Shown piece after piece: positions 3,430-57,737 of a DNA stretch of 64,000 bases; the stretch's first letter is position 1; every line of letters starts with the position of its first letter. The notes under the pieces were generated by a model. The model saw nothing but the letters and a program-made list of their open reading frames with translations. It was not told where the DNA came from and searched no databases. The translations under genes and the position numbers were made by a program. This DNA comes from Candidatus Gastranaerophilaceae bacterium (GTDB lineage: Bacteria; Cyanobacteriota; Vampirovibrionia; Gastranaerophilales; Gastranaerophilaceae): NCBI GenBank assembly GCA_035354275.1, contig DAOQAU010000001.1, positions 42,377 to 106,376 on the forward strand, given 5' to 3'.

Positions 3430-3520
3430 GAGTGAATAAGTGTATTTTTTGTTATTATATTTTTTTGCGAAGCAAATAATTGAACCTATTCACCTATTTA
3501 CTTATTCACTTATTTACTTC
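3430..3520. repeat. Stop-rich 7/8-nt tandem tract pair between atpA and atpG
   Basis: GAGTGAATAAGTG at 3430-3442 and CCTATTCACCTATTTACTTATTCACTTATTTACTTC at 3485-3520. The second reads GTGAATA/GTAAATA on the atpA sense strand. The two arms are partly complementary. Confidence 0.75.
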
Positions 3521-6547: not shown

Positions 6548-6650
6548 TAGTTGAAAAGTCGAACAGTCGATAAGTTGAAAAGTTTATGAGAGTATAAGAT
6601 TATGAGTTTATAAGTTTTCTTCTCACTCCTCACATCTCACCTCTCACTAC
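6548..6650. repeat. Stop-rich 7/8-nt tandem tracts, including the dispersed 36-bp unit
   Basis: AGTTGAAAAGTCGAACAGTCGATAAGTTGAAAAGTT (also at 23311 and 58731), then a TATGAGnn/TATAAGnn octamer run, then CTCACTCCTCACATCTCACCTCTCACTAC. The last tract abuts the subunit c stop codon and reads GTGAnnn on its sense strand. Confidence 0.8.
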
Positions 6651-10289: not shown

Positions 10290-11114
10290 ATGACTAAATT
10301 AAGAATTTTTCTCGGGTATTTCATTTTAATTATAATCTCGCTGAGCATGCTTTTGCCGTTTTTTGCGATGCTGAGTCTTTCATTCATGCCGGGAAGCGAA
10401 ATTTTTTCCTATCCGCCAAAATTGTTTTCAAAAAATATCACGGTGCAAAATTACTTTAGCGTTTTTACATCAATCCCCGTTACAAGATATTTTTTAAACA
10501 GCCTTTTTGTTGCAACAATAACCACAATAGGACAAGTTTTTTTCGCAGCACTTGCGGGATATGCTTTTGCAAGGCTTAAATTTAAAGGTAAAGATATTTT
10601 ATTTTTTATTTTCTTAATAACCATGATGATTCCGCCTCAGGTGAATATAATCCCGCTTTTCTTTTTAATGCGCGAACTTCATCTGGTGGACACTTATCAA
10701 GCACTTATTATACCTGGCTTTTTCGGCGGGTTTGGAGTTTTTATGCTCAGGCAGTATTTTTTGAATTTGCCCAAAGAACTGGAAGAATCTTCCAAAATCG
10801 ACGGCTGCAATATTTTTCAAATGTTTTTTAAAATCGCGCTTCCGCTTGCGCTGCCTGCTGTTGCAACCCTTGCGATATTTACTTTTGTATCAAGCTGGAA
10901 CAGTTTTATGTGGCCTTTGATTATAACAAGCTCTGATTCAATGAGAACTTTACCTGTGGGTTTGGCGGCTTTTAAAGGAAGTTTCAGAGAAGTTACCATG
11001 TGGGGGGATTTGTTGGCATGTGCGGTTATTTGCACTTTGCCTGTTGTCGGAATTTTTCTTCTGGGTAAAAAATATTTCATAAACGATCTTTTGCAAGGCG
11101 GGGTTAAAGAGTAA
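10290..11114 (+). CDS. Carbohydrate-type ABC transporter permease (MalG/UgpE-like), orphan
   Basis: EAA-loop region EESSKIDGCNIFQMFFKIALPLALPA and six TM segments. The start is set at MTKLRIF, because the upstream part of the track ORF (10179-10289) crosses the repeat element. Confidence 0.8.
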   Translation: MTKLRIFLGYFILIIISLSMLLPFFAMLSLSFMPGSEIFSYPPKLFSKNITVQNYFSVFTSIPVTRYFLNSLFVATITTIGQVFFAALAGYAFARLKFKGKDILFFIFLITMMIPPQVNIIPLFFLMRELHLVDTYQALIIPGFFGGFGVFMLRQYFLNLPKELEESSKIDGCNIFQMFFKIALPLALPAVATLAIFTFVSSWNSFMWPLIITSSDSMRTLPVGLAAFKGSFREVTMWGDLLACAVICTLPVVGIFLLGKKYFINDLLQGGVKE

Positions 11115-11132
11115 AAAGTAAATAGTAAATGG
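11111..11132 (+). repeat. Stop-rich heptamer tract overlapping the permease stop codon
   Basis: GAG TAA AAAGTAAATAGTAAATGG. GTAAA(T/A) units begin at the stop codon itself. Confidence 0.65.
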
Positions 11133-11251: not shown

Positions 11252-12703
11252 ATGTCAGAAACAAATTTTATTTACACCAACCAAAACGGTGTGAGTGAGG
11301 CTTTATACAATAATTTTTTGTTTGTAGAAAATACAGCAAGACTTAAAAGCATTAAAAATTTTGAAAAAACAAAACTTTGCGTAATAAAAACGGATTTTGG
11401 CAAAAATGATTTAAAAACGATAGAAAAAATCAAATCGGAAAACCAAGACGTTGAATTTTGGATTTGTTCCAACAATTCTTCAAGAAAAAACATTTTAGCC
11501 GCAAACAAAATAGGAATAAATACCGTTCTTGCATGCCCTTTTGATATTTCAATGATTGAAGAATACCTTAACAGCCAACAATTTCCTTACTTAAATAACC
11601 TTTCCGAAAACAATTACAGCGGACTGGAAGGGCTTAAGGTGATGATAGTTGATGATAATGTAATGAACGTTGAACTTTTAGAAGAGGTTCTATCAGAGCT
11701 TAATTTAAGGATATCAAGTTTCACAAAGCCGGCTCAAGCAATGGAATTTGTATTAAGGGAAAAATTCGATTTATTTTTGCTTGATATTATGATGCCCGAA
11801 ATTTCGGGATTTGATTTGATTAAAATCATTAAAAAAACCCCGCTTAACCAAAATGCCCCGATTATTTTTATCAGCGCACTTTCTGACGCCCAAAACAAGA
11901 TAAAAAGTTATAATTTGGGGTCTTATGCTTATATCGAAAAGCCTTTTGACATAAACATAGTTAAATCACAAATTTATAACATTTTAAAAAATCATAAAAT
12001 TCAAGAAATTCTATCTTCCGACAAAGAAACTTTTCTTGCCACCGTAGCTCATGACCTAAAAACACCTATAAAGGCTGAAATTAATGCGCTAAATATGCTC
12101 TTAGACGACAAGTTTGATAAAATGGAAGTTGATAAACAGGAAATTCTTGAAGATATTTTAAGTTCAACACGCTTCATGCAAGATTTGGTGGAAAATCTGC
12201 TTTGCAAAAACAAGATTGAACAAGAAAAAATCAACCTGTGCAAAGATTTTTACTGCGTTAAAGAACTTGTTTTACACTGTATTGAATTGACAAAATATAT
12301 TTTATTGCCTAAAAAACAAAAAATTAATTTTAAATGCAAAACAGAAGAAACACTGCTATTTTTTGATTTTTTAGAAATGAAAAGGGCTCTTCACAACCTT
12401 ATTGCAAATGCCAGCGAATACTCAAGCGAAAAAGACGAAATTTTAGTAGAAATTTTTAAAGAAGGGAACAATTTGGGTCTTTCAGTACAGGATTTTGGCA
12501 GGGGCATAAAACTTGAACATCAAAAAGATGTTTTTTCACAGTACATGTCGCTTGCTAAACAGCAAAAAACAGTAGGTTCAGGCTTGGGGCTCTACATTAC
12601 AAAAAGCATTGTAGAAGCCCATCAAGGGGAAATTTTGCTCGACAGCAAAGTCGGCGAAGGTACAAAAATTACAATTATGCTTCCGATTTATACTAAAGTT
12701 TAA
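11252..12703 (+). CDS. Hybrid response regulator / sensor histidine kinase (N-terminal unknown domain, REC, HisKA, HATPase_c)
   Basis: REC signatures VMIVDDN and DLFLLDIMMPEISG. H-box FLATVAHDLKTPI. N-box HNLIANASEYS. G-boxes DFGRGI and GSGLGLY. Confidence 0.88.
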   Translation: MSETNFIYTNQNGVSEALYNNFLFVENTARLKSIKNFEKTKLCVIKTDFGKNDLKTIEKIKSENQDVEFWICSNNSSRKNILAANKIGINTVLACPFDISMIEEYLNSQQFPYLNNLSENNYSGLEGLKVMIVDDNVMNVELLEEVLSELNLRISSFTKPAQAMEFVLREKFDLFLLDIMMPEISGFDLIKIIKKTPLNQNAPIIFISALSDAQNKIKSYNLGSYAYIEKPFDINIVKSQIYNILKNHKIQEILSSDKETFLATVAHDLKTPIKAEINALNMLLDDKFDKMEVDKQEILEDILSSTRFMQDLVENLLCKNKIEQEKINLCKDFYCVKELVLHCIELTKYILLPKKQKINFKCKTEETLLFFDFLEMKRALHNLIANASEYSSEKDEILVEIFKEGNNLGLSVQDFGRGIKLEHQKDVFSQYMSLAKQQKTVGSGLGLYITKSIVEAHQGEILLDSKVGEGTKITIMLPIYTKV

Positions 12704-13154: not shown

Positions 13155-13201
13155 TTAATTACAATTTGTTTTTATAAATATATAGACTTCAAGGGGTTGT
13201 T

Positions 13202-13924
13202 ATGTTCGATTTTGTACAAAAGTTTATATATTGGGTTTTGTCGTTGCAGGAAAAACGGTTAAAACACAAATTAGGCGGCAGTTTGAAACGTTCTTTTTCA
13301 AACTCTACTTCAAAAATTGTTTTTTCAAAATCAGACAGTCTTAAACTTAATTCTATGACTGAAAAGAACAAAGAAAGACTTGAAAAAGAAGTAAAAATAA
13401 TATTGAAACATTGCGAGAATAATCCCGATAAAGTTTTTGAGTTTATTGAGAAAAAAGGTACAAAAGTCCACAAAATTCCTTTTGCTCACAAAATTTTAAA
13501 ATTAATAGGCCTTGAAGAAGGGCTTGTTGCAAAGCTTAACGGAATAAAAGCTTTGTATTTAACCTCTGTGCTTGCTGTTTTAGGCAAAGAAAATAAAATC
13601 TCATTAACTACAAAACCAATGTTTGTCATGAGGGATTTGCCGCTAAATTCATATTACACAATTCAGCAATTTCACAAATGGTATGCAACAAAGCTTGATA
13701 TGCCTGGATTTGATGCAAAATCTCAGGAACATTTCCAAAAATATCTGGACAATATCAATGATGAAAGTATAAAAAGTTTGAGCATGGAAGAAATTATCGG
13801 ACTTAAAGAAGCTATTGCAAGAGACGTTGAGGCGATAAATTTTGTAATAAGCCTTGCGAAATCAACAGAAGGTGCAAAAAACGCCCTGAATAAAATGGCA
13901 ACCGAAAAAGGTGCATCTGTTTAA
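13202..13924 (+). CDS. Hypothetical protein (240 aa)
   Basis: Long ORF with an AAGGGG ribosome-binding site 6 nt upstream. I recognise no family. Confidence 0.5.
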   Translation: MFDFVQKFIYWVLSLQEKRLKHKLGGSLKRSFSNSTSKIVFSKSDSLKLNSMTEKNKERLEKEVKIILKHCENNPDKVFEFIEKKGTKVHKIPFAHKILKLIGLEEGLVAKLNGIKALYLTSVLAVLGKENKISLTTKPMFVMRDLPLNSYYTIQQFHKWYATKLDMPGFDAKSQEHFQKYLDNINDESIKSLSMEEIIGLKEAIARDVEAINFVISLAKSTEGAKNALNKMATEKGASV

Positions 13925-16515: not shown

Positions 16516-16642
16516 AAAAGTGAAGAGTGATGAGTGAGCAGTGAACGGAATATTTTTGAAATCTACAATTTCAAAATTATTCCGTGCCATCAATTTTATT
16601 TATCCTGCCCCTTCACTTTTCACTTCTCACCCTTCACTTTTC
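16516..16642. repeat. Inverted pair of heptamer tracts flanking the conserved GAAATCTACAATTTC hairpin
   Basis: Left arm AAAAGTGAAGAGTGATGAGTGAGCAGTGAACGG and right arm CCCCTTCACTTTTCACTTCTCACCCTTCACTTTTC are imperfect reverse complements. The central hairpin is at 16546-16584. Confidence 0.8.
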
Positions 16643-16764: not shown

Positions 16765-17073
16765 ATGTTAATGGAAAATTGTCAAGCTGACTGTAGCAGG
16801 CATGGTCATATGGAATTAAAAAATGTTAACAAAGAAATTATTTCATGGCTTGAAGATGTAATTGACGAAAACAACAGTCGAGTTGAAAGGAAAGAATGGA
16901 AAAGTAAATATAACAGCTACGTTGTATATGATTACGAACCGTTCTGCGCCGAAGGCTTTGAAATAAATTTGTTAATAACATCCTACGACAGTGCTTATCT
17001 TAATTTTATCAAATACCTGTATGACGAAAAAATAAATACAATCCAATATTTAAACAATTGTATAGGCGTTTAG
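16765..17073 (+). CDS. Hypothetical protein (~102 aa)
   Basis: The ATG at 16765 is preceded by GGGAG. I recognise no family. Confidence 0.45.
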   Translation: MLMENCQADCSRHGHMELKNVNKEIISWLEDVIDENNSRVERKEWKSKYNSYVVYDYEPFCAEGFEINLLITSYDSAYLNFIKYLYDEKINTIQYLNNCIGV

Positions 17074-18205: not shown

Positions 18206-19060
18206 TCATTGAAAATTATTGGTAATCGTATAGATATATTCAAGAATTTGTGAGAAATATTCTAAATCGGAATTTCCGTTTAAAATCATATCAGCTTCGT
18301 TTCTGAAGGGCTTAATGTATTTTTCGCCTGCGATTTTAACGTATTCCCAGTGTTTTTGGGCATTACACTCGTCTTGATTTCTGCAAACAGCCCTTGACAT
18401 AAATCGTCTTTGTCTTTCCTGACAATCCGCTTCTATATAAATTTTGATGTCAAAAATTTCTTTAACATCCTTATACATAGTTGACATTCCTTCGACAACC
18501 ACTATTTTTTGAGCTTGTACAGGAATTGATTTTGGCACAGAAACACCTGTGCCGTTAAGCAAATACTGAGGAATTTTTATATCAAGACCTTTTGAAATAA
18601 TTTCCAAATCTTCTTTCAATAAATCAAGCTGAAAACTTTCCGGTGCATCGACGTCGTATCCGTTATCACGAAGAGTATCAAAATCTCCCCAACGGCTTAT
18701 TAAATCTGAAATATCGTTAAAATAATTATCGGAACTTATTATTGTAACGGGAAGGTTAAGTAAGGCTATTGTATCTTTTATTTTGTTGCATATTGTTGAC
18801 TTGCCGCAGGCTGATTCTCCCGTAATTCCGACCAAAATCTTTTTTTGAGGATTGTTTATAAGTCTTTTTGAAAACCTTGAAATAAAATCGGGTCTTACTT
18901 CAATAAAAATAGGCGTATGGTATTTTTTGTCATGGGCAAGAATTTGCTTAAACTTTGACTGAAGATAAAACGCCAGCAGCTCCCTGCCGGTTTTTTGATT
19001 AAAGTCGGGCTTTAAAATTTTATCTGAGGTATTATTTTCTTTTTCAATTAATGCTATCAT
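18206..19060 (-). CDS. Uridine kinase / phosphoribulokinase family (PF00485-like) P-loop kinase, paralog 1
   Basis: GITGESACGKST P-loop, SSDNYF, VVVEG, and the Udk-type order of motifs. It has a ~75 aa N-terminal extension. Confidence 0.7.
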   Translation of the reverse strand: MIALIEKENNTSDKILKPDFNQKTGRELLAFYLQSKFKQILAHDKKYHTPIFIEVRPDFISRFSKRLINNPQKKILVGITGESACGKSTICNKIKDTIALLNLPVTIISSDNYFNDISDLISRWGDFDTLRDNGYDVDAPESFQLDLLKEDLEIISKGLDIKIPQYLLNGTGVSVPKSIPVQAQKIVVVEGMSTMYKDVKEIFDIKIYIEADCQERQRRFMSRAVCRNQDECNAQKHWEYVKIAGEKYIKPFRNEADMILNGNSDLEYFSQILEYIYTITNNFQ

Positions 19061-19072
19061 TTCCCCTCATTT

Positions 19073-19145
19073 GTCATCCTGAAATTGTTTCAGGATCTCT
19101 CCAACTTACACCGCTGACGAGATGCTGAAATAAATTCAGCATGAC
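19073..19145. repeat. REP-like element of two inverted hairpin units
   Basis: GTCATCCTGAAATTGTTTCAGGATCTC and GAGATGCTGAAATAAATTCAGCATGAC. Each is a hairpin, and the second is approximately the reverse complement of the first. Confidence 0.75.
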
Positions 19146-19322
19146 GTTTAAATGTATATTTAAGTATAATAATACTTGTAAAAATAAAATTTGCTATAAA
19201 ATATAACAAATCTTAAAAACATTTACAATTTAAAAAAAATTATTGTAAAAATTTTCTAAAAAAATATCGACGTACAAGAATTTTTTTGTACGCCGATAAA
19301 ATTAATAATATCTAAATTTTTT

Positions 19323-22813: not shown

Positions 22814-22851
22814 TAAAAAAAGCGGCGGATTTCTTAAAGAAATCCGCCGCT
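22814..22851 (-). terminator. Rho-independent terminator
   Basis: AGCGGCGGATTTCTT-A-AAGAAATCCGCCGCT, with a T-run on the minus strand. It is downstream of the gene ending at 22885. Confidence 0.75.
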
Positions 22852-22884
22852 TTAACCCATATCCCTTATCCCTTAAATCTATAA

Positions 22885-23250: not shown

Positions 23251-23419
23251 GTGAGGGGGTAAATGTATTTAGCTGAATGGCTGAATGGGTGAACGGCTGA
23301 AAGGTTATTTTAGTTGAAAAGTCGAACAGTCGAATAGTTGAAAAGTTTTATATTAGTCGGGAAACAACAATTTGAACTTATTCACTTATTCACTTATTCA
23401 CTTTTTCACCCATTTACCC
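23251..23419. repeat. Largest composite of stop-rich 7/8-nt tandem tracts
   Basis: GTGAGGGGGTAAATG, then a CTGAATGG octamer run, then the 36-bp AGTTGAAAAGTCGAACAGTCGAATAGTTGAAAAGTT unit, then CTTATTCAC x3 TTTTTCACCCATTTACCCC running into the hydG stop codon. The ends are inverted copies of GGGGTAAATG. Confidence 0.85.
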
Positions 23420-24814
23420 CTAAACGTACAAATCTCTTGCACCGTTTTGGATTTTATCGAGGGTTTCTATGACTTTTGCTCTGATTTTTTCATCTTTTAT
23501 GTTATTTTTAATGTGATTTTCTATGGCTTCAAAACCTGCTTTTTTAGTTTCTTCACTAGCATAGTCATTAAGATATTCGGCAAAAGTAGCCACCGCATTA
23601 GGATCGCAAAATCTTTGAATTAAACCGACTTGCGCCAAATCCATAAAATCTTTTCCCACCCTTCCCAATCTGTAACAGCTTGTGCAAAAGCTGGGAATAA
23701 AGCCATGTTGTGCTAACTCTTCTACAATTTCATCCAGTGAGCGGGTGTCGCCCATGGTGAACTGTTCGGTTGAATTTTCATCAGAGTATCCGCCGGGGTT
23801 TGTTTTTGAACCTGCGCTGATTTGAGAAATTCCCAATTCAATAACTTCTCTTCTCACTTGGGCAGACTCCCTTGTGGTCAAAATCATGCCGGTGTAGGGC
23901 ACAGCAAGTCTTAATATCGCAACTATTTTCTTAAACTGCTTATCGTTAATTGCATGAGGCGGATTTTTTGATAAATCCGAACCTGAAGCAGGCTCAATCC
24001 TTGGAACAGAAAGCGTATGAGGTCCGACTCCGTATTTATTTAACAAATATTTTGAGTGTTCAATAAGAGCTAAAACTTCAAACCTGTAATCACAAAGCCC
24101 GAATAATGCACCCATACCGAAATCCTGAATCCCGCCTTCTATTGCCCTGTCCATTGTTTCCAAACGCCATTGATAATTTGCCTTAGGTCCTGAAAGGTGC
24201 ATTTTTTTGTAAACATCGGGGTGATAAGTTTCCTGAAAAGACTGGAAAGTCCCGATGCCAAAAGAAGCAAGACGCTTGAATTCTTCTGTTTTCAACGGAG
24301 CCATATTAACGTTAATTCTTCTAACTTCGCCGTTCATTATTTTCTTTTCGTAAATTTTATCAATAATTTCTTTTATATAATCAAGATTGCACTGGTTTGT
24401 ATCTTCGCCTGCCACAAGCAAAATTCTTTTGTGCCCCATATTTATTATCTGTTCTGCCTCATGCACGGCCTCATCAAATGTAAGTTTTCTTCTTTTAATT
24501 TCTTTGTTGTCACGGCGGAAACCGCAGTAAAGACAATTATTACAGCAATAATTTGAAAGATAAAGCGGTGCAAAAAGAACTATTCTTTTGCCGTAAATTC
24601 CTTCTTTAACTTTTTTTGCCGTTCTAAAAAGTTTATTCAAAAGATTTTCGTCTTCAAGATTCAAAAGAACTGCTATTTCTTCGGTTCCAAGTCCTTTTAA
24701 TTCCAATGATTTTGTAAGGATTTCATTAACCCTTTTTTCATCCCCTTTTAATTCCAAATAAGAATTAATTTTAGCTACATCAATAATATTCATAATAAAA
24801 TTCTCCTCTAACAC
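23420..24814 (-). CDS. hydG: [FeFe]-hydrogenase maturase HydG (radical SAM tyrosine lyase)
   Basis: CNNCLYC radical SAM CX3CX2C motif, plus a C-terminal CTSC-(22 aa)-C. I counted this CX2CX22C motif directly; it distinguishes HydG from ThiH. Confidence 0.85.
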   Translation of the reverse strand: MLEENFIMNIIDVAKINSYLELKGDEKRVNEILTKSLELKGLGTEEIAVLLNLEDENLLNKLFRTAKKVKEGIYGKRIVLFAPLYLSNYCCNNCLYCGFRRDNKEIKRRKLTFDEAVHEAEQIINMGHKRILLVAGEDTNQCNLDYIKEIIDKIYEKKIMNGEVRRINVNMAPLKTEEFKRLASFGIGTFQSFQETYHPDVYKKMHLSGPKANYQWRLETMDRAIEGGIQDFGMGALFGLCDYRFEVLALIEHSKYLLNKYGVGPHTLSVPRIEPASGSDLSKNPPHAINDKQFKKIVAILRLAVPYTGMILTTRESAQVRREVIELGISQISAGSKTNPGGYSDENSTEQFTMGDTRSLDEIVEELAQHGFIPSFCTSCYRLGRVGKDFMDLAQVGLIQRFCDPNAVATFAEYLNDYASEETKKAGFEAIENHIKNNIKDEKIRAKVIETLDKIQNGARDLYV

Positions 24815-24883: not shown

Positions 24884-25747
24884 TTAAATTTCGCAGGCTT
24901 CGGCAATGGCATTAAATATTTTATCGGTAATGACTTCAATATAATCAACAGCAACCATTCCGTTTATAATAACATCAGAAATCTCCATTGCAGGTCTAAT
25001 GTAGCGTTGCGCGGTATGATTCACATCGGCAAACATCATATCTGCAGCTTCTCCGGTTTTTCCTCGTGTAGCTGCACGATTGTACCAACGATCTTTTATT
25101 ACATCAATCGGAGTAAACACATAAACCCTTATGTCCATTATCTCCCTTAAGTCTTCATTCAAAACATAAAGCCCTTCATTTAAGATTACTTTAGCGGGCT
25201 TTTTAACTTCGCCGTCAGATTTTGAAACGCAGGTTACAAAATCATAGTTGGGCGAAACAACGGTATTGCCCTGTTTTAGTTCAATTAAATGCTGTTTCAT
25301 CAAATCAAGATTAACTGCTTTTGGCGTATCAAAACTAAAACCTGTTTTAAATAAAGCTTCGTAGCTTCCCGCATCAATAAGTTCTTTTGAAGTATCATAA
25401 AAATAATCATCGCAACGAATTACGGTATAAATTCCTTCTTTTTTTTCTTTAACGCATGCTTTTACGGTGTTATCGACAAAAGTGGTTTTACCCGAAGCCG
25501 ATTCTCCTGCAATTCCTATAAGAAAAGTCTTTTTCTTATCATGCACGACTCTTTTTGCTATATCAAAAAGAAAATTATTAGTTGTACGCAAAAACAAAGG
25601 CTGTTTTTCTTTTCTGTCTTCGGCAATAATTTTATTTAAGGAGTCAACTATATTAGCCACCAATTCCATTTCATGACGGCTTGAATAAAAATCGTAATTT
25701 GTTAAATTAAAATTGCTTTGCAACATCCTATCCGAAGTTTCTTCCAT
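24884..25747 (-). CDS. Uridine kinase / phosphoribulokinase family P-loop kinase, paralog 2
   Basis: GIAGESASGKTT P-loop, CDDYFYD, and the same architecture and length as 18206-19060. Confidence 0.7.
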   Translation of the reverse strand: MEETSDRMLQSNFNLTNYDFYSSRHEMELVANIVDSLNKIIAEDRKEKQPLFLRTTNNFLFDIAKRVVHDKKKTFLIGIAGESASGKTTFVDNTVKACVKEKKEGIYTVIRCDDYFYDTSKELIDAGSYEALFKTGFSFDTPKAVNLDLMKQHLIELKQGNTVVSPNYDFVTCVSKSDGEVKKPAKVILNEGLYVLNEDLREIMDIRVYVFTPIDVIKDRWYNRAATRGKTGEAADMMFADVNHTAQRYIRPAMEISDVIINGMVAVDYIEVITDKIFNAIAEACEI

Positions 25748-25908: not shown

Positions 25909-27114
25909 ATGAAAAAATCAATAAAGGATTTAGGCGACATAAAAGGCAAAAGGGCACTGGTGAGAGTTGATGTTAACGTTCCTCTCGACGAAAACAAAAA
26001 CGTGACAGACGACACAAGAATTCAGGCTATTATTCCGACAATAAAGTTTTTACAGGAAAAAGGCGCAAAAATAATTCTCATGGCGCATTTGGGAAGACCA
26101 AAAGGCGAATGGAATATGGAATTTACACTTGCTCCTGTTGCAAAAAAACTTTCTAAAGTCTTAGGACAAGAGGTTTTATTCATTTCAACTCCGATAGGTC
26201 AAGGTGCCGAAAAAGATTTAACAGAGCTTAAAGACGGTCAGGTTGCCTTATTGGAAAATATTCGTTTTTATAAAGCCGAAGAAGCAAAAGACGATGACAT
26301 GACATTTGCCAAAGAACTTGCAAAACTAGGCGATTTTTACGTTAATGATGCTTTCGGTGCTGCGCACAGAAATCACACTTCAACATCAAAACTTGCAAAA
26401 GTTTTAAAACCGGCTGTTTCAGGATTTTTAATGGAAAAAGAAATAAGATGTCTGGGAAATGCCCTTAATAATCCCGTAAAACCTTTTACCGCAATAGTAG
26501 GCGGTGCTAAAGTTTCGACCAAAATCGGGGTTTTGGAAAACTTAATCGATAAAGTGGACAACCTGATAATCGGCGGGGGCATGGCTTACACGTTTGTCAA
26601 AGCAAACGGCGGCAAAATCGGAAATTCAATCTGCGAAGACGACCAGCTTGAAGTCGCAAAAGAAGTAGAGAAAAAAGCTGCCGCAAAAGGCGTTAAAATA
26701 ATTATGGCAAAAGATGTTCTTGTAACAGACGATTTTTCAGGAAACGGTACAAACAAAATCGTAGATGTTTATGAAATCCCCGACGGCTTTGAAGGAGTTG
26801 ACGCAGGCCCTGAAACTCAAAAAGCGTTTGAAGCTGTAATCAAAACCTCAAAAACAATTCTTTGGAACGGGCCTGTAGGTGCGTTTGAAAACGACAAATT
26901 TACTCAAGGCACAAAAGCTGTTGCACTTGCGGTTCAAGAAGCCACAAAAAACGGCGCGGTAAGCGTTCTTGGAGGCGGCGATACCGTTGCGGCGGTTAAA
27001 AAATACAAATTGGATGAAAATACTTTCACCCACATTTCAACAGGCGGCGGCGCAAGCCTTGAATTTATCGAAGGCAAAGTGCTTCCTGGCGTTGACGCTT
27101 TAGATGATAAATAA
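25909..27114 (+). CDS. pgk: Phosphoglycerate kinase (canonical copy)
   Basis: 401 aa. RVDVNVPL, MAHLGRPKG, NDAFGAAHR and GGGDT motifs. No N-terminal extension. Confidence 0.96.
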   Translation: MKKSIKDLGDIKGKRALVRVDVNVPLDENKNVTDDTRIQAIIPTIKFLQEKGAKIILMAHLGRPKGEWNMEFTLAPVAKKLSKVLGQEVLFISTPIGQGAEKDLTELKDGQVALLENIRFYKAEEAKDDDMTFAKELAKLGDFYVNDAFGAAHRNHTSTSKLAKVLKPAVSGFLMEKEIRCLGNALNNPVKPFTAIVGGAKVSTKIGVLENLIDKVDNLIIGGGMAYTFVKANGGKIGNSICEDDQLEVAKEVEKKAAAKGVKIIMAKDVLVTDDFSGNGTNKIVDVYEIPDGFEGVDAGPETQKAFEAVIKTSKTILWNGPVGAFENDKFTQGTKAVALAVQEATKNGAVSVLGGGDTVAAVKKYKLDENTFTHISTGGGASLEFIEGKVLPGVDALDDK

Positions 27115-28897
27115 CATGATTGAATTACTGGCACCTGCTAAAGATAAAATATGTGCTAAAGCAGCAATAGATTTCGGTGCAGATGCAATATACATAGGTG
27201 CAAGCGAATTCGGGGCAAGAAAAAACGCCCCGAATTCGCTTGCTGATATTGAAGAAATTGTTCAATATGCCCATAAATTTAATGTAAAAGTTTATGCTGC
27301 GGTAAACACAATTTTAACCGATGAAGAAATTAAGAGGGCAGAAAAACTAATTGAAGATTTATCAAAAATCGGCATTGACGCGATAATAATACAGGATATG
27401 GGCTTACTTTCAGCAATAAAAGCCAATAATATTTGCTGCCATGCCTCAACCCAATGCGATAATACAACGGCCGAAAAAGTTAAATTTCTTGAAAGTATAG
27501 GGTTTTCAAGAGTAATTTTGGCGCGGGAACTCTCGATTGAACAAATTAGAGAAATAAAAAAGCAAACCAATCTTGAACTGGAAGCCTTTATCCATGGTGC
27601 ATTATGTGTTTCATACAGCGGAAAATGTTACCTAAGTTATGCCATAGGCGGACGCTCGGCAAACAAGGGCGAGTGTGCCCAGCCTTGCAGAAAAAAATAT
27701 TCACTCATTGACGAAAAAGGAAATTACCTCGCAAAAGACAGATATTTGCTTAATTTAAAAGATTTTAACGCCTCAAATTACATAAAAGAATTAGCTGAAG
27801 CAGGCGTTACATCATTTAAAATTGAAGGAAGATTAAAAGACGAAAATTACGTAAAAAATGTCGTCGCATATTACAGAAAACTAATCGACGATTTAGATTA
27901 CCAAAAAACATCGTCTGGTAAAATATTATTTGATTTTGAACCCGATTTGAATAAAAGTTTTAACAGAGGCTTTACGGATTATTTTCTCGAAGGCAAAAGA
28001 AAAAAATGCTTTGACTTTGACAGCCCAAAATCAAAAGGTGAATACATCGGAGAGGTTACGAAAATCAAAAAAGATAACTTTGAAATCACGTCACCCCTCA
28101 CCCTTCACCCTTCACATCTTTTTTCCCAAGACGGCTTATGTTTTATGTACAACGGCGAAATTCAGGGCTGTCTTGTAAACAAGGTTGAAAATAACAAAAT
28201 ATTTCCCAACAAAATGAATGGGGTTAAAATCGGGACAAAAATTTATCGAAATTTGGATTCTGAATTTGAAAAAAAACTAAAAAATTCAAAAACACAAAGA
28301 AAAATAGGGGTTAATTTAACTTTTGAATCAGATAAAATCACCGCAGTTGATGAGGACGGAAATATTACCAAAATTAATTATGCTTATGAAGAACTTGCTA
28401 AAAACAGCATAAAAGCAAAAGAAACAATAATTAAACAGCTTAAAAAATCGGGAGATAGTGATTTTGAAGTTGAAGATGTAACTATAAACATTAACAAGAT
28501 GCCCTTTTTGCCTGTTTCAAAACTAAACGAACTTCGCCGCGAATTGCTTGAAAAATTGATGAAAAAACGCCTACAAAACTATTCCCCTATACATCATCCT
28601 GAACCAATTTCAGAATCTCATCAACCCTTAAATCAAACAATCAATTATCAAGGCAATATTTTAAACAAAAAAGCAAATATTTTTTACGAAAAACACGGAT
28701 GCAAAATTGTTGAATCCGCACTTGAAAGTGGTAAAATTCCTGTTTGCGGTAAAATAGTTATGACCACAAAACATTGTCTGAAATCGGCTTTTAATATGTG
28801 CAAATCAAGTGAAAAGATGTTTTTGGTTGATGAAAAGGGCAAAAAATATTCGCTAAAATTTAATTGCGATAAATGTGAGATGGAAGTTATTTTTTAA
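27104..28897 (+). CDS. Peptidase U32 family protein
   Basis: ELLAPA...AIDFGADAIYIG..FGAR N-terminus and the E.F.HGALC.SYSG.C motif are typical of U32 proteins. Confidence 0.85.
   Translation: MINNMIELLAPAKDKICAKAAIDFGADAIYIGASEFGARKNAPNSLADIEEIVQYAHKFNVKVYAAVNTILTDEEIKRAEKLIEDLSKIGIDAIIIQDMGLLSAIKANNICCHASTQCDNTTAEKVKFLESIGFSRVILARELSIEQIREIKKQTNLELEAFIHGALCVSYSGKCYLSYAIGGRSANKGECAQPCRKKYSLIDEKGNYLAKDRYLLNLKDFNASNYIKELAEAGVTSFKIEGRLKDENYVKNVVAYYRKLIDDLDYQKTSSGKILFDFEPDLNKSFNRGFTDYFLEGKRKKCFDFDSPKSKGEYIGEVTKIKKDNFEITSPLTLHPSHLFSQDGLCFMYNGEIQGCLVNKVENNKIFPNKMNGVKIGTKIYRNLDSEFEKKLKNSKTQRKIGVNLTFESDKITAVDEDGNITKINYAYEELAKNSIKAKETIIKQLKKSGDSDFEVEDVTININKMPFLPVSKLNELRRELLEKLMKKRLQNYSPIHHPEPISESHQPLNQTINYQGNILNKKANIFYEKHGCKIVESALESGKIPVCGKIVMTTKHCLKSAFNMCKSSEKMFLVDEKGKKYSLKFNCDKCEMEVIF
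28087..28118 (+). repeat. Heptamer tract (TCACCCY x4) embedded in-frame in the U32 gene
   Basis: CACGTCACCCCTCACCCTTCACCCTTCACATC encodes TSPLTLHPSH. Confidence 0.8.
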
Positions 28898-28910: not shown

Positions 28911-29603
28911 ATGTCATATAGGGGAAAAAAATTACTAAAAATAATGCAAAATGCTAATAATTACAATAATTTTGTAATTAATTTAATTTTAAAATCAATC
29001 GTTGATAAAAACTTTAAAACCCTTGATTTTGGAGCAGGATATGGTTTTTTTGCTAATCTTTTAAGAAAAAGCGGGGTTAGTAATATCAAATGTGTCGAAA
29101 TAGACGAAGAATTAAGCGAACATTGCAAAAATCTTGATTTTTTTGTGTTTAAGAATCTGCATGACATAGAAAATAACTCTTATGATTTTATTTATACCCT
29201 TAATGTTCTTGAGCATATCAGAGATGACAAAGCGGTTTTACTTGCACTAAAAGCAAAATTGAAAAAAGAAGGGAAAATTTTTATTTATGTTCCTGCTTTT
29301 AAATTATTATATTCATCCTTTGACAAAAAAATTCGCCACTGCAGAAGGTACAAAAAAGAAGATTTGATTCCGTTTTTAGAAAACAACGGATTTGAAATTT
29401 TAAATGCAAAATATGTTGACAGTTTTGGGTTTTTCTTAGCTCTAATATACAAATTTATAAACAAAAACGACGGTGAAATTAATATGTTAAGCGTTAAAAT
29501 ATTTGATAAAATTTTATTCCCTGTCGGAAGAATTTTTGACAAAATTATCTTTGAAAAATTTTTAGGGAAAAACCTTATTGTAGAAGCAAAACTTATTCAA
29601 TAA
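28911..29603 (+). CDS. Class I SAM-dependent methyltransferase
   Basis: LDFGAGYGFFA motif I, and a DFIYTLNVLEHI motif. Confidence 0.72.
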   Translation: MSYRGKKLLKIMQNANNYNNFVINLILKSIVDKNFKTLDFGAGYGFFANLLRKSGVSNIKCVEIDEELSEHCKNLDFFVFKNLHDIENNSYDFIYTLNVLEHIRDDKAVLLALKAKLKKEGKIFIYVPAFKLLYSSFDKKIRHCRRYKKEDLIPFLENNGFEILNAKYVDSFGFFLALIYKFINKNDGEINMLSVKIFDKILFPVGRIFDKIIFEKFLGKNLIVEAKLIQ

Positions 29604-30597
29604 TTTTTATAATAAGTTCTTTGGCGGTTTTTGAGGCTTGCTCAAAAACCGCTTTATTTGTCCAAAAATCATCGCGTTCAATATATTTTTTTACAATTTT
29701 TCTTGCGTAAGAGCCGACGGAAATTCCGTTGAAATCAATTCCGAAAATTTTTGCAAGCTCTGCGGTCTTAGAATTTGTTCCGCCTGAAATTAAAAGATAA
29801 ACAGGCAGTTTTTCGTTAGCTATAATTTCTGCCATGGCAACTGCAGGAAGTGTTGTTTTAAAATCATCTTCGCCTCCGGACATCGGGTTTCCGTCTGCCT
29901 GAATTATTGTTGTATAAAGTTTTCTGTTTTTTATTAAATTTTTAATCCTGTTTAAAACTGCTTCATTTGATAGTTTTGACCTGTCAATACAAATACTCAG
30001 CATTCCGTCAAAGTTTTTGTTTAAATAATTCCATCTTTCCTGAACATCTTTTTCATCTGTGCCGGAAGCATGCAATTCAATACAGGTGAAGGGTGAAGGG
30101 TGAAGGGTGAAGAGAGGAAAAAATATGTCTTCTATCGGCTTATTTTTTTGATATATTTCAATAGCACTATGTTTACAGGTTTTTAAACATCTTGCACAGC
30201 CGATACATTTTTCTTCGATAACCATAAAATCAGGGTTGATGGCTTTTTGCAGGCAGGAATCAATGCAATTGACACATTTTTTGCAAAATTTTTGATTGAT
30301 TTTTGCTTTATTAAAATGCGGCTCGCCTTTTATTCCGACACTTATGCAAAAATGGTAATCAGATAAGTTTTTTTTGTCCGTAACCCTTAGGATGCCTTTT
30401 TGTGCAGCCTCAATAACTTCTTTATGCGGAGATAGGTCAAAAAATCTGCAGCCGGATGCAGCATAAATTGCAACAAGTTTTTCGACTTCGTCTAAATCCT
30501 CGTTTCCCGCCCCGCAAATTAACTTGAAACATTTTCTGCTTTCTAAAAGTTTTTGCAATCCGCATTGTCGGGATTGCAATCCCGACCTACCTCTCAC
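29593..30597 (-). CDS. 4Fe-4S dicluster domain protein, LdpA/DUF561-like
   Basis: FKLICGAGNED N-terminal block and two ferredoxin-type motifs, CKKCVNCIDSC and CIGCARCLKTC. The start is uncertain: the track ORF begins with GTG inside a repeat tract. Confidence 0.55.
   Translation of the reverse strand: MRGRSGLQSRQCGLQKLLESRKCFKLICGAGNEDLDEVEKLVAIYAASGCRFFDLSPHKEVIEAAQKGILRVTDKKNLSDYHFCISVGIKGEPHFNKAKINQKFCKKCVNCIDSCLQKAINPDFMVIEEKCIGCARCLKTCKHSAIEIYQKNKPIEDIFFPLFTLHPSPFTCIELHASGTDEKDVQERWNYLNKNFDGMLSICIDRSKLSNEAVLNRIKNLIKNRKLYTTIIQADGNPMSGGEDDFKTTLPAVAMAEIIANEKLPVYLLISGGTNSKTAELAKIFGIDFNGISVGSYARKIVKKYIERDDFWTNKAVFEQASKTAKELIIKIIE
30083..30117 (-). repeat. Heptamer tract embedded in-frame in the Fe-S protein gene
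   Basis: The plus strand reads CAGGTGAAGGGTGAAGGGTGAAGGGTGAAGAGAGG. The coding strand encodes PLFTLHPSPFT. Confidence 0.8.
30567..30586. other. Perfect 20-bp palindrome
   Basis: GTCGGGATTGCAATCCCGAC, between the rfbA stop codon and the Fe-S protein gene. Confidence 0.85.
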
Positions 30598-30631
30598 CCA
30601 TTTACCCCCTCACCTCTCACTTCTCCCCAAT
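30586..30631 (-). repeat. Stop-rich heptamer tract abutting the rfbA stop codon
   Basis: The minus strand reads GGGGAGAAGTGAGAGGTGAGGGGGTAAATGGGTGAGAGG immediately after the rfbA TAA. Confidence 0.75.
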
Positions 30632-56040: not shown

Positions 56041-56080
56041 ACTTACTCACCTATTCACCTATTTACTTATTCACTTATTT
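56041..56080 (-). repeat. Stop-rich octamer tract overlapping the stop codon of the 56075 gene
   Basis: The minus strand reads AAATAAGTGAATAAGTAAATAGGTGAATAGGTGAGTAAGT. Confidence 0.75.
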
Positions 56081-56539
56081 AGCATACTTAAGAAAAATCT
56101 GCTCCTTTGTCTGCATCAGTTCTTCTACAATAAGCCACCTTCCGTCAGACTGTTTTTGCACAACCATCGAACTTTTAAGATAATAATTGCTCAATGACGG
56201 CCTTCTCAAAGAATCAATCCTGTAACCGTTTGAAACTTTTGTAACTTTTATGTTGGAATAATAATTTTTATAATTTTTAAGTTTAGCGATTTTTTCGCTC
56301 AACCGCATTTGTGCTCTGTACTGGTCAGCCGTAAAATAAGCGTTTGCAAGGCTTCCGTCGGGTTTTACAATTTGTCTTATGATTTTTGCATTATCCGAAT
56401 ACATCGAAGGAACAGCTTGACTGTAACTGTTTGCGGCATTTACAAAGCTGTTAAAAAATTTCAAAGCATCTTCCTGCCCGTCTGCAAAAGTGCATAAGCC
56501 AAACATCATTATTGTAAAAACGGTCAGTATTTTTTTCAT
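56075..56539 (-). CDS. Hypothetical exported protein
   Basis: Signal-peptide-like N-terminus MKKILTVFTIMMFGLCTFA. I recognise no family. Confidence 0.5.
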   Translation of the reverse strand: MKKILTVFTIMMFGLCTFADGQEDALKFFNSFVNAANSYSQAVPSMYSDNAKIIRQIVKPDGSLANAYFTADQYRAQMRLSEKIAKLKNYKNYYSNIKVTKVSNGYRIDSLRRPSLSNYYLKSSMVVQKQSDGRWLIVEELMQTKEQIFLKYAK

Positions 56540-56604
56540 TAACAAAATCCTTAAGTGTTTTTAAATGTTACCATAAAAAAAATTAAAAATATCACCCTTT
56601 AAGG

Positions 56605-57699: not shown

Positions 57700-57737
57700 C
57701 ATTTACCCCTTCACTGCTCACCTCTCACCCTTCACCT
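57700..57737 (-). repeat. Stop-rich heptamer tract abutting the xerC/D stop codon
   Basis: The minus strand reads GGTGAAGGGTGAGAGGTGAGCAGTGAAGGGGTAAATG directly after the stop codon. Confidence 0.75.

Follow-up and report, generated by a model that had tools for sequence, protein, structure and literature searches.

Tandem 7- and 8-nucleotide arrays with inverted arms at gene ends in a Gastranaerophilaceae genome

Organization of the repeat locus adjoining hydG

In the 64-kb stretch of Gastranaerophilaceae DNA analysed here (the window), the gap between the start of an 89-aa open reading frame (ORF) and the stop codon of hydG, at positions 23251-23419, carries tandem arrays of 7- and 8-nt units, a type of repeat that recurs at gene ends along the window. 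The hydG gene (23420-24814, - strand), encoding a protein with radical SAM and BATS domains, ends with a TAG codon that adjoins the array, the last base of which (23419) lies one base short of the stop. On the + strand, the locus is composed of GTGAGGGGGTAAATG, 3.8 copies of GCTGAATG, a 36-nt element AGTTGAAAAGTCGAACAGTCGAATAGTTGAAAAGTT, a 28-nt spacer, 4.2 copies of ACTTATTC and, finally, TTTTTCACCCATTTACCC. The first two components form a distal purine-rich arm (23251-23303, + strand), which pairs in the transcript with the arm at 23376-23419. The latter is the stop-bearing purine-rich arm of the opposite strand; it reads TAG followed by GGGTAAATGGGTGAAAAAGTGAATAAGTGAATAAGTGAATAAG on the - strand, starting from the hydG stop, and has a period of 8 with 4.2 copies and 96% matches according to Tandem Repeats Finder. 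The 36-nt element between the two arms (23312-23347, + strand), made up of 4.5 units AGTYGAAN, is a dispersed core with an identical copy in the metagenome-assembled genome (MAG) STE_97 (L001).

Thirteen sites with degenerate tandem runs had been listed in an earlier note drawn from the letters of this DNA, and all 13 are present. A self-similarity scan of the window yielded nine period-7 and nine period-8 tracts, where 20 Markov-type shuffles that approximately keep dinucleotide content gave 0.25 and 0.15, respectively. The other periods stayed near background, with the exception of 16, which is twice 8. Sixteen of these 18 tracts are intergenic, in a window that is 90% coding. The arrays are thus tandem runs above compositional expectation, as long simple sequence repeats (SSRs) with 5-11-nt units are. 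Two further arrays, absent from the list of 13, are located within ORFs, one in that of a U32 peptidase (28091-28115) and one in that of LdpA (30085-30112). Genome-wide spread is judged here from these 64 kb and from pieces of related genomes; close relatives, identified via AtpA and LdpA, are L009/L016 (96% AtpA identity), L010 (94%) and L017, all of which bear arrays.

The suspicion that such tracts might arise during assembly was checked against five independent assemblies from other samples (GCA_964605115.1, ERZ27257449, ERZ27257423, SRR5007244 and SRR4236661), 99.7-100% identical to the window over stretches within 19.6-40.4 kb. The flanks contain 0-47 substitutions, and there is no difference in any covered array (22852, 23251-23419, 28091, 30085 and 30586, each present in two to four of the five assemblies). 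Since independent assemblies are base-identical over the covered arrays, an assembly artefact is ruled out. The arrays are stable among strains and not hypervariable.

Structure of the units, arms and modules

The repeat unit measures 7 or 8 nt and follows variants of a G-N-T-R-A-A pattern: AGTGAAG, GGTGAGA, AGTAAAT, AAGTGAAT, AGTTGAAA, GCTGAATG and AAGGGAT. The purine strand of the arms is nearly devoid of C (fraction 0-0.11), and its complement is G-free with a C fraction of 0.2-0.54, for instance at 57700-57737 and 30586-30631. As a consequence of this C-free composition, neither arm folds alone. A module consists of a purine-rich arm, an optional central hairpin, terminator or 36-nt core, and an inverted pyrimidine-rich arm; about half of the sites are single arms without a partner. 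Examples of elements lying between arms are a perfect inner stem (16549-16590) and GTCGGGATTGCAATCCCGAC, which follows the rfbA tract. The arms succeed each other in the order purine to pyrimidine in all five pairs found with a strict detector and in about 11 of 11 by inspection, so that convergent inverted pairs, as known from the Xanthomonas and Nostoc repeats, are present here too. Since such a module is a quasi-palindrome, the purine arm comes first on either strand, and a gene ending at the module from either side would meet the purine arm in sense.

The opposite-orientation tracts and imperfect inverted repeats announced in the earlier note are real: composite sites have predicted folding energies of -39, -47.4, -27.9 and -32 kcal/mol (z-scores of -3.2 to -8.3 relative to shuffles) and take the form of imperfect stem-loops of considerable length. 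Moreover, arms match in cis, predicted pairing within a module reaching -0.70 kcal/mol/nt against -0.53 kcal/mol/nt with the arms of other modules (permutation p = 0.0007).

The recurring 36-nt element is found at 6549, 23312 and 58731 with 2, 0 and 4 mismatches, respectively. A scan of a species-representative genome collection with the pattern of the core alone retrieved a single genome, the Candidatus Gastranaerophilales MAG STE_97, where the core lies on two contigs in a like architecture: 7-mer arm, core, inverted 7-mer arm. Alignment of five core copies revealed sharp edges and unrelated flanks. The core is not a hairpin itself, and L009 and L010 lack it in their orthologous atpE spacers. 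A phage origin of the core was rejected, with zero matches in viral contigs.

Position of the arrays relative to stop codons

A sense-strand tract at or overlapping the stop codon had been claimed for ten genes, and every one of these assignments was verified: atpA (3528), atpE (6651), a permease gene (11114), the 89-aa ORF (22885), hydG (23420), rfbA (30632), dnaK (40880), the ORF at 56075, an xerC/D-like gene (57738) and an OEP/TolC-like gene (58808). We then scanned the 45 nt past every stop codon in the array-bearing genomes, scoring the sense strand as purine-rich above 0.6 and as pyrimidine-rich below 0.4. Seventeen gene ends possess a period-7/8 tract; the sense strand is purine-rich in 15 and pyrimidine-rich in none of them. 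This confirms the sense-strand, stop-adjoining bias, with the purine/G-rich sequence on the coding strand where a tract overlaps the stop codon or lies less than 50 bp away. The same scan in four array-free relatives found zero tracts.

The real stop codon is often in phase with the T-R-A of the next units, as in atpE (TAAGTAG TGAGAGG TGAGATG), L010 atpH (TGAACAG TAAACGG TAAAAGG) and the permease gene (TAAAAAG TAAATAG TAAATGG). It had been proposed that every unit contains a stop triplet and that stops occur in all three frames. Both statements hold for the majority, most units being stop-bearing and most arms closing three frames; nevertheless, AGTCGAAC, GGGATAT and GGCGAGA are stop-free, and the core (23310-23350) and the 22849-22880 tract close two frames of three each. 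The tract genes end with TAA (nine) or TAG (one), while the units mostly carry TGA, which terminates 5 of the 67 window ORFs; on this ground, an origin of the arrays by copying of the local stop codon was rejected.

Spacers with an array have a median length of 118 nt, compared to 20 nt for those without. In operons, the tracts follow the stop codon and precede the next Shine-Dalgarno sequence, and the atpE-atpF' and atpA-atpG spacers end with ...AAAAAGGAC/AAAAAGGAT directly before ATG. One match of the terminator scan lies 3' of the 22885 tract; the dnaK tract is followed, as judged by eye, by a GC-rich stem and a T-run. Owing to these terminator-like hairpins past the 22885 and dnaK tracts, the tracts lie between the stop codon and the terminator. 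The arrays are not terminators themselves, since they lack a GC-rich stem with a U-run and the scanned (22885) and by-eye (dnaK) hairpins stand separately downstream. A role as Shine-Dalgarno-like "standby" arrays was also rejected, the complementarity of the purine arms to the 3' end of 16S rRNA not exceeding that of composition-matched shuffles (mean z = +0.54). No match to the Rfam 15 families at gathering score was obtained in the window, and no tRNA-derived repeats were found. Arrays also occur in divergent promoter regions and spacers and as antisense arms.

Distribution of arrays along the window

In the atp operon, a purine-rich arm of AAGTGAAT/AAGTAAAT 8-mers follows the atpA stop (3487-3519, - strand), and its short inverted partner GAGTGAATAAGTG (3430-3446, + strand) is located 14 nt 5' of the atpG start. 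The atpE-atpF' spacer contains the core copy with two mismatches (6549-6584, + strand), an array of TATGAGNN/TATAAGNT 8-mers (6585-6617, + strand) and, from the atpE stop, a GTGAGNN 7-mer arm (6618-6650, - strand) reading TAAGTAG TGAGAGG TGAGATG TGAGGAG TGAGAAG. The permease gene ends within an AGTAAAT 7-mer arm (11105-11132, + strand), one unit of which supplies the TAA stop (11112-11114). A divergent intergenic region holds an AGTGAAG 7-mer arm (16516-16546, + strand) and an inverted arm of the same type (16611-16642, - strand); together with the perfect hairpin between them, they are predicted to fold at -47.4 kcal/mol (z = -8.3). Next, an AAGGGAT 7-mer arm (22852-22884, - strand) separates the stop codon of the 89-aa ORF from a canonical terminator (22819-22853).

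Downstream of rfbA, a GTGAGAG/GGTAAAT arm (30586-30631, - strand) is followed by the palindrome GTCGGGATTGCAATCCCGAC (30567-30586). An AGTAAAT/AGTGAAT arm (40855-40893, - strand) extends over the dnaK stop (40880-40882), and the terminator-like GC-rich hairpin with T-run beyond it (about 40810-40852) was recognised by eye, unscanned. The divergent spacer between dnaK and a phosphoglycerate kinase-like gene contains an AGTAAAT arm (42765-42790, + strand) and its inverted counterpart (42797-42832, - strand). The stop of ORF 56075-56545 is included in an 8-mer arm of AGGTGAAT/AAGTAAAT (56041-56080, - strand), and a GGTGAAG/GGTGAGA 7-mer arm (57700-57737, - strand) begins 1 nt past the xerC/D-like stop. 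Near the OEP/TolC-like gene, GTAACAGGTAAATAGGTG precedes the core copy with four mismatches (58709-58766 as a whole, the core at 58731-58766, + strand), and an inverted AGTTGAAN arm (58770-58806, - strand) adjoins the stop of this gene. Finally, a lone GGTAAAT-type arm occupies a divergent spacer (60249-60276, - strand).

Arrays inside open reading frames

The arrays identified inside ORFs, in LdpA, U32 peptidase and TsaB-like proteins, are all in the stop-free orientation, the sole one able to survive there, and encode LHPSPFT-like linkers. In the window, the U32 peptidase gene contains a GGGTGAA array (28091-28115, - strand) with the stop-free reading SPLTLHPSH, and ldpA a perfect array of four GGTGAAG units (30085-30112, + strand), read on the - strand as PLFTLHPSPFT. 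Peptides resembling the latter are kept in homologues down to 60% identity, which excludes a recent insertion of the LdpA array.

The LdpA site is tandem in four genomes. On the ORF strand, its units are CTTCACC in the window, the 8-mer TTTCAGCC in L016, CTCACYT in L017 and CTTCACY in L018, and the corresponding unit types are listed as GGTGAAG, GGCTGAAA, GTGAGAA and CTTCACY. The site has undergone a concerted change within a coding region, extending even to the period, 7 versus 8. In the U32 peptidase, array-derived peptides are present at one site in three genomes, and a second site is variable; L018 also carries an array in a TsaB-like protein. In-ORF arrays of the relatives lie at 10481-10528 and 11772-11803 in L016, at 2254-2288 in L017, and at 10446-10478, 13201-13236 and 15372-15414 in L018.

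LdpA is the light-dependent period protein of cyanobacterial clocks. Its homologue (29593-30597) is here encoded by a non-photosynthetic member of the Gastranaerophilaceae, and it is widespread in that group. The presence of this homologue, of an ATP synthase operon with b and b' subunits and of a separate atpD-atpC pair is consistent with a lineage related to cyanobacteria. The AtpA sequence of the window matches, at 100% identity, a protein recorded under "Candidatus Gastranaerophilaceae bacterium". The longest LdpA ORF starts with GTG inside the rfbA tract and runs through the palindrome (30558-30597; MRGRSGLQSRQCGLQ...), although this start is uncertain. The resulting N-terminal extension is also called in L017, and other homologues begin about 12 residues later.

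Turnover of the arrays among related genomes

Identity at 4-fold sites among the array-bearing genomes is 0.5-0.65, and the arrays vary considerably in presence and in unit type. After atpE, the window has GTGAG 7-mers and the core, L009 has GGCTGAA 8-mers and an inverted ACTTATTC arm, and L010 has forward units only. After atpH, an array is present in L009 and L010 and missing in the window. In the same operon comparison, the array after atpA is confined to the window and that after atpG to L009. In L016, rfbA and ldpA overlap by ATGA; in both the window and L017, their junction is occupied by an array with a palindrome. The unit type has changed between species in the hydG, atpE and permease arrays. 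Other arrays are close to identical: that of the 22885 gene matches L016 at 31 of 32 positions, L016 having one more 7-nt unit, and the rfbA array matches L017 at 25 of its initial 26 positions, which an indel follows. Where arrays appear, protein lengths remain the same (AtpH 184 aa, AtpE 83 aa, RfbA 293 aa), which means that the arrays begin exactly at the ancestral stop position.

No tract was detected in relatives at 89-91% AtpA identity (about 79 kb), nor in relatives at 66-69% HydG identity (about 54 kb). Within the stretches compared, the array phenomenon appears, from sequence, to be limited to a narrow clade.

Some additional features were noted at these junctions. In the window, atpG and a convergent response-regulator gene overlap by 4 nt (2487-2490); in L009, an array-led insert of about 90 nt (12539-12631) is found at this place, and the L009 proteins flanking it are longer (319 versus 309 aa and 217 versus 214 aa). 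A palindrome family, GTYGGGWTT..AAWCCCGAC, often stands beside arrays, namely at 30567-30586 in the window, after dnaK and hydG in L016, and in the atpH-atpA spacer of L009. Downstream of the rfbA tract, the window and L017 have copies that are 100% identical, at a 4-fold-site identity of about 50%.

Comparison with known repeat systems

The short tandemly repeated repetitive (STRR) sequences of Calothrix and Nostoc (Mazel et al. 1990) are said to be tandem heptanucleotides, dispersed between genes and lineage-restricted, with the units CCCCAGT, TTGGTCA and CAACAGT for STRR1-3. The arrays studied here are likewise tandem heptamers of dispersed intergenic location and restricted distribution, in a sister lineage of the photosynthetic cyanobacteria. 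They differ in that their host is neither photosynthetic nor heterocystous and that octamers also occur. Tandems of the three STRR units are not found in the window.

The small dispersed repeat (SDR) of Nostoc (Elhai 2008) is reportedly a 21-27-nt element that inserts into otherwise homologous sequence. The modules resemble repetitive extragenic palindromes and bacterial interspersed mosaic elements (REP/BIME), REP doublets forming hairpins (REPIN) and the Nostoc SDR (PMC3116915) as short extragenic, hairpin-forming repeats at gene ends, and the 36-nt core has the sharp ends and differing flanks of a small dispersed element. Unlike REP and REPIN, their arms are tandem arrays and not a single palindrome. 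Furthermore, none of the 67 window ORFs encodes a transposase, including the Y1/REP-associated tyrosine transposase (RAYT) type, or a reverse transcriptase.

The GGGNATC/GGGGAYT heptamers of Xanthomonas and Nostoc (Rehm et al. 2015; PMC4692102) are dispersed, mostly between co-directional ORFs. Where they overlap a stop codon or lie within 50 bp of one, the coding strand carries the purine/G-rich sequence, and upstream of ORFs the non-coding strand does; 70-75 convergent inverted pairs are present per Xanthomonas genome, and between species the length of the repeats differs and their type, single or pair, is kept (PMC4692102). The arrays of the window share the stop-proximal purine strand in sense, the convergent inverted pairs and the dispersion between genes. 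On the other hand, they carry T-R-A, lack C, mostly have no G3 tract per unit, mix periods of 7 and 8 nt, possess a conserved 36-nt core and belong to another host phylum. Since the GGGNATC units contain no stop triplets (PMC4692102) and nevertheless show this geometry, the position and strand rule must be broader than a stop-codon property. The window contains no tandems of GGGAATC, GGGGACT or GGGGATT and no G3N1-7 x4 G-quadruplex motif, the AAGGGAT array, with three G3 tracts, being the sole near approach. The L016 counterpart of this array (16960-16996) has four such tracts, hence a formal G-quadruplex motif, compared to three at 22852-22884 in the window; the two are one 7-nt unit apart. 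The likeness to cyanobacterial heptamer repeats suggested in the earlier note is therefore apt, the host belonging to the Gastranaerophilaceae (Melainabacteria) and the same geometry having been published for Nostoc and Xanthomonas.

TAACTGA direct repeats (MacGregor 2015; PMC4679880) have a patchy phyletic distribution over marine Beggiatoaceae, cyanobacteria and Bacteroidetes. In forward orientation they provide stops in three frames and hence can overlap only ORF ends, and in reverse orientation they are translated inside ORFs; the arrays lie chiefly just 5' of start codons, have one unit type and include one reported inverted pair (PMC4679880). All-frame stops in the forward direction, translation of the reverse orientation within ORFs and patchy distribution are common to our arrays, which differ by adjoining stop codons and by having varied units and many inverted pairs. 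A TAACTGA tandem is absent from the window. Finally, long SSRs with 5-11-nt units, predominantly heptamers, occur sporadically across phyla, and slippage has been proposed as their cause (Mrazek et al. 2007, as summarised in PMC4679880). In that summary they form a statistical class without rules of orientation or of modular organization, to which the present arrays add fixed polarity, a C-free strand and the core.

Our literature search found no report of such repeats in Melainabacteria. The present arrays extend the bacterial heptamer-array class to a non-photosynthetic sister lineage of cyanobacteria, where an unrelated unit obeys the published geometry of a purine strand in sense right past the stop and of convergent inverted pairs. 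That Xanthomonas, Nostoc and Gastranaerophilaceae have this geometry in common speaks for a general cause, lying either in how the arrays arise or in a constraint at gene ends. The clade also offers a natural experiment, with array-bearing species beside array-free sisters, strain-stable arrays, and LHPSPFT-like linkers retained down to 60% protein identity.

Origin and possible roles of the arrays

The arrays belong to an already known class of bacterial heptamer arrays and provide no evidence for a new termination mechanism. The reading we favour, with a probability of roughly 0.5, is that they represent a lineage-specific family of inverted-arm tandem arrays, maintained by slippage and filtered by where they are tolerated, a counterpart of the SSR/STRR heptamers of Nostoc and Xanthomonas. 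Arrays would arise through slippage during replication or through unequal exchange, combined with inverted copying in cis. The modules would then persist only where an insert with a non-triplet period is harmless, that is, between the stop codon and the next signal, either a terminator or a Shine-Dalgarno sequence. The purine arm, with T-R-A about once per unit, would close most or all frames; for this reason it can lie flush to the stop codon, or even supply it, and the protein is not lengthened. The opposite, stop-free arm would be the only orientation to survive in ORFs, in the form of the LHPSPFT-like linkers. According to this scheme, the all-frame stops would act as a filter on array location and not be its purpose. 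An effect of the modules on mRNA 3' ends or on cistron expression, through the predicted pairing of arms upstream of canonical terminators, is plausible.

Several observations fit poorly with slippage and tolerance. The 22885 array is conserved at 31/32 positions and the rfbA array at 25/26 over its initial 26 nt, despite a 4-fold-site identity of 50-65%, which suggests either constraint or recent homogenisation to one unit. The 36-nt core is near-invariant across loci and two genomes and has sharp edges; such invariance would imply something beyond slippage alone, whether mobility, conversion or a sequence-specific function. Filtering by tolerance accounts for contact with the stop but not, by itself, for the exclusively purine-first modules, and the near-total lack of C on one strand has no explanation in these terms. 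In addition, strain comparisons yielded zero slippage events, and the window ORFs include no transposase or reverse transcriptase. The sample consists of the window (about 64 kb) and about 90 kb of related loci, in which some sites are orthologous and thus non-independent. As the purine-first polarity, the C-free strand and the conserved core and arrays stay unexplained, a functional reading, as RNA stem-loops or as strand-asymmetric pads, stays alive.

The first functional possibility, which we consider less likely, is that the modules are putative RNA stem-loops similar to REP/BIME, forming a long hairpin in the 3' untranslated region or between cistrons. Such hairpins might shield the upstream mRNA from 3' exonucleases or attenuate read-through, thereby setting cistron ratios, for instance of atpE versus the downstream atp genes. 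The low folding energies of composite sites (z = -3.2 to -8.3), the matching of arms in cis (p = 0.0007) and the stability of arrays among strains would agree with this, as would the occurrence of an array after atpE in three genomes despite wholly changed unit sequence and the higher conservation of some arrays relative to 4-fold sites. However, about half of the sites are single arms, and a C-free arm cannot fold alone; separate terminator-like hairpins stand past the tracts; presence or absence varies at many orthologous junctions, with array-free sister genomes; and Rfam gave zero matches in the window.

It seems unlikely, though conceivable, that the arrays are putative strand-asymmetric binding platforms, in which the purine arm (A, G and U) or its G-free, C-rich complement would recruit a protein once the stop triplets had cleared the ribosomes. 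One candidate could be Rho, which would load on the C-rich strand and stop antisense transcription or read-through past the stop codon; another could be an RNA- or DNA-binding protein specific to the lineage. The extreme three-letter composition (C 0-0.11 on one strand, G-free with C 0.2-0.54 on the other), the regular spacing of 7-8 nt, the fixed polarity and the conserved 36-nt core all speak for a binding site. Against it, unit sequences are diverse (GTGAA, GTAAA, GTTGAA, GCTGAA, GGGAT), paired arms would mask a single-stranded site, no candidate protein was found among the window ORFs, and arrays are gained or lost between close species.

With a similarly low likelihood, the modules might be strand-symmetric insulators. 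The C-free arm would end translation in every frame, its G-free, C-rich partner or, for a single arm, the antisense copy would serve as an unstructured pad for the loading of a termination or processing factor, and the 36-nt core would be recognised by a clade-specific protein that also spreads the modules. If so, gene ends would block both read-through in sense and transcripts arriving in antisense.

Fail-safe termination, that is, selection for stopping read-through or frameshifted ribosomes in each frame, had been among the purposes considered in the earlier note and is in our view very improbable. It is true that the purine arms start at or include the stop, that most of them close three frames and that the real stop is often in phase with the T-R-A that follows. 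Nevertheless, arrays of 4-6 units far exceed the need, stop-free units and a stop-free core exist, and two arrays close two frames only. TGA, the commonest triplet of the units, is rare as an ORF end (5/67), arrays also lie in divergent spacers and antisense, and sister genomes do without them. The stop-free heptamers of Xanthomonas and Nostoc are biased likewise in position and strand (PMC4692102), and a location at ORF ends is logically required of all-frame stops, as already stated for TAACTGA (PMC4679880).

The remaining suggestion, contingency (phase-variation) loci in which gain or loss of a 7/8-nt unit would switch neighbouring genes or shift the frame within ORFs, may draw on the non-triplet period, the perfect 4x7 array of LdpA and the orthologous array differing by exactly one unit between species, but it is strongly disfavoured by zero unit changes in five arrays, LdpA 4x7 included, each seen in two to four of five strain-level assemblies, and sits badly with arrays at the 3' ends of housekeeping genes (atp, dnaK, hydG) and not in promoters or 5' regions of surface genes.

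Other features of the window

Unrelated to the 7/8-mer tracts is a double hairpin of REPIN-like type, located at 19073-19162 of the window, at 1169-1257 of L002 and at about 11510-11585 of L009. It is composed of GTCATGCTGAATTTATTTCAGCATC, 23 nt and GATCCTGAAACAATTTCAGGATGAC, with the terminal inverted sequences GTCATSC...GSATGAC. The element is common to the STE_97 MAG, and in L009 it occupies the atpA-atpG spacer. The window also encodes two phosphoglycerate kinase paralogues (25909-27114 and 42975-44414), the second extended at its N-terminus by about 57 residues, and two paralogues of the PRK/uridine-kinase family (18206-19060 and 24884-25747).

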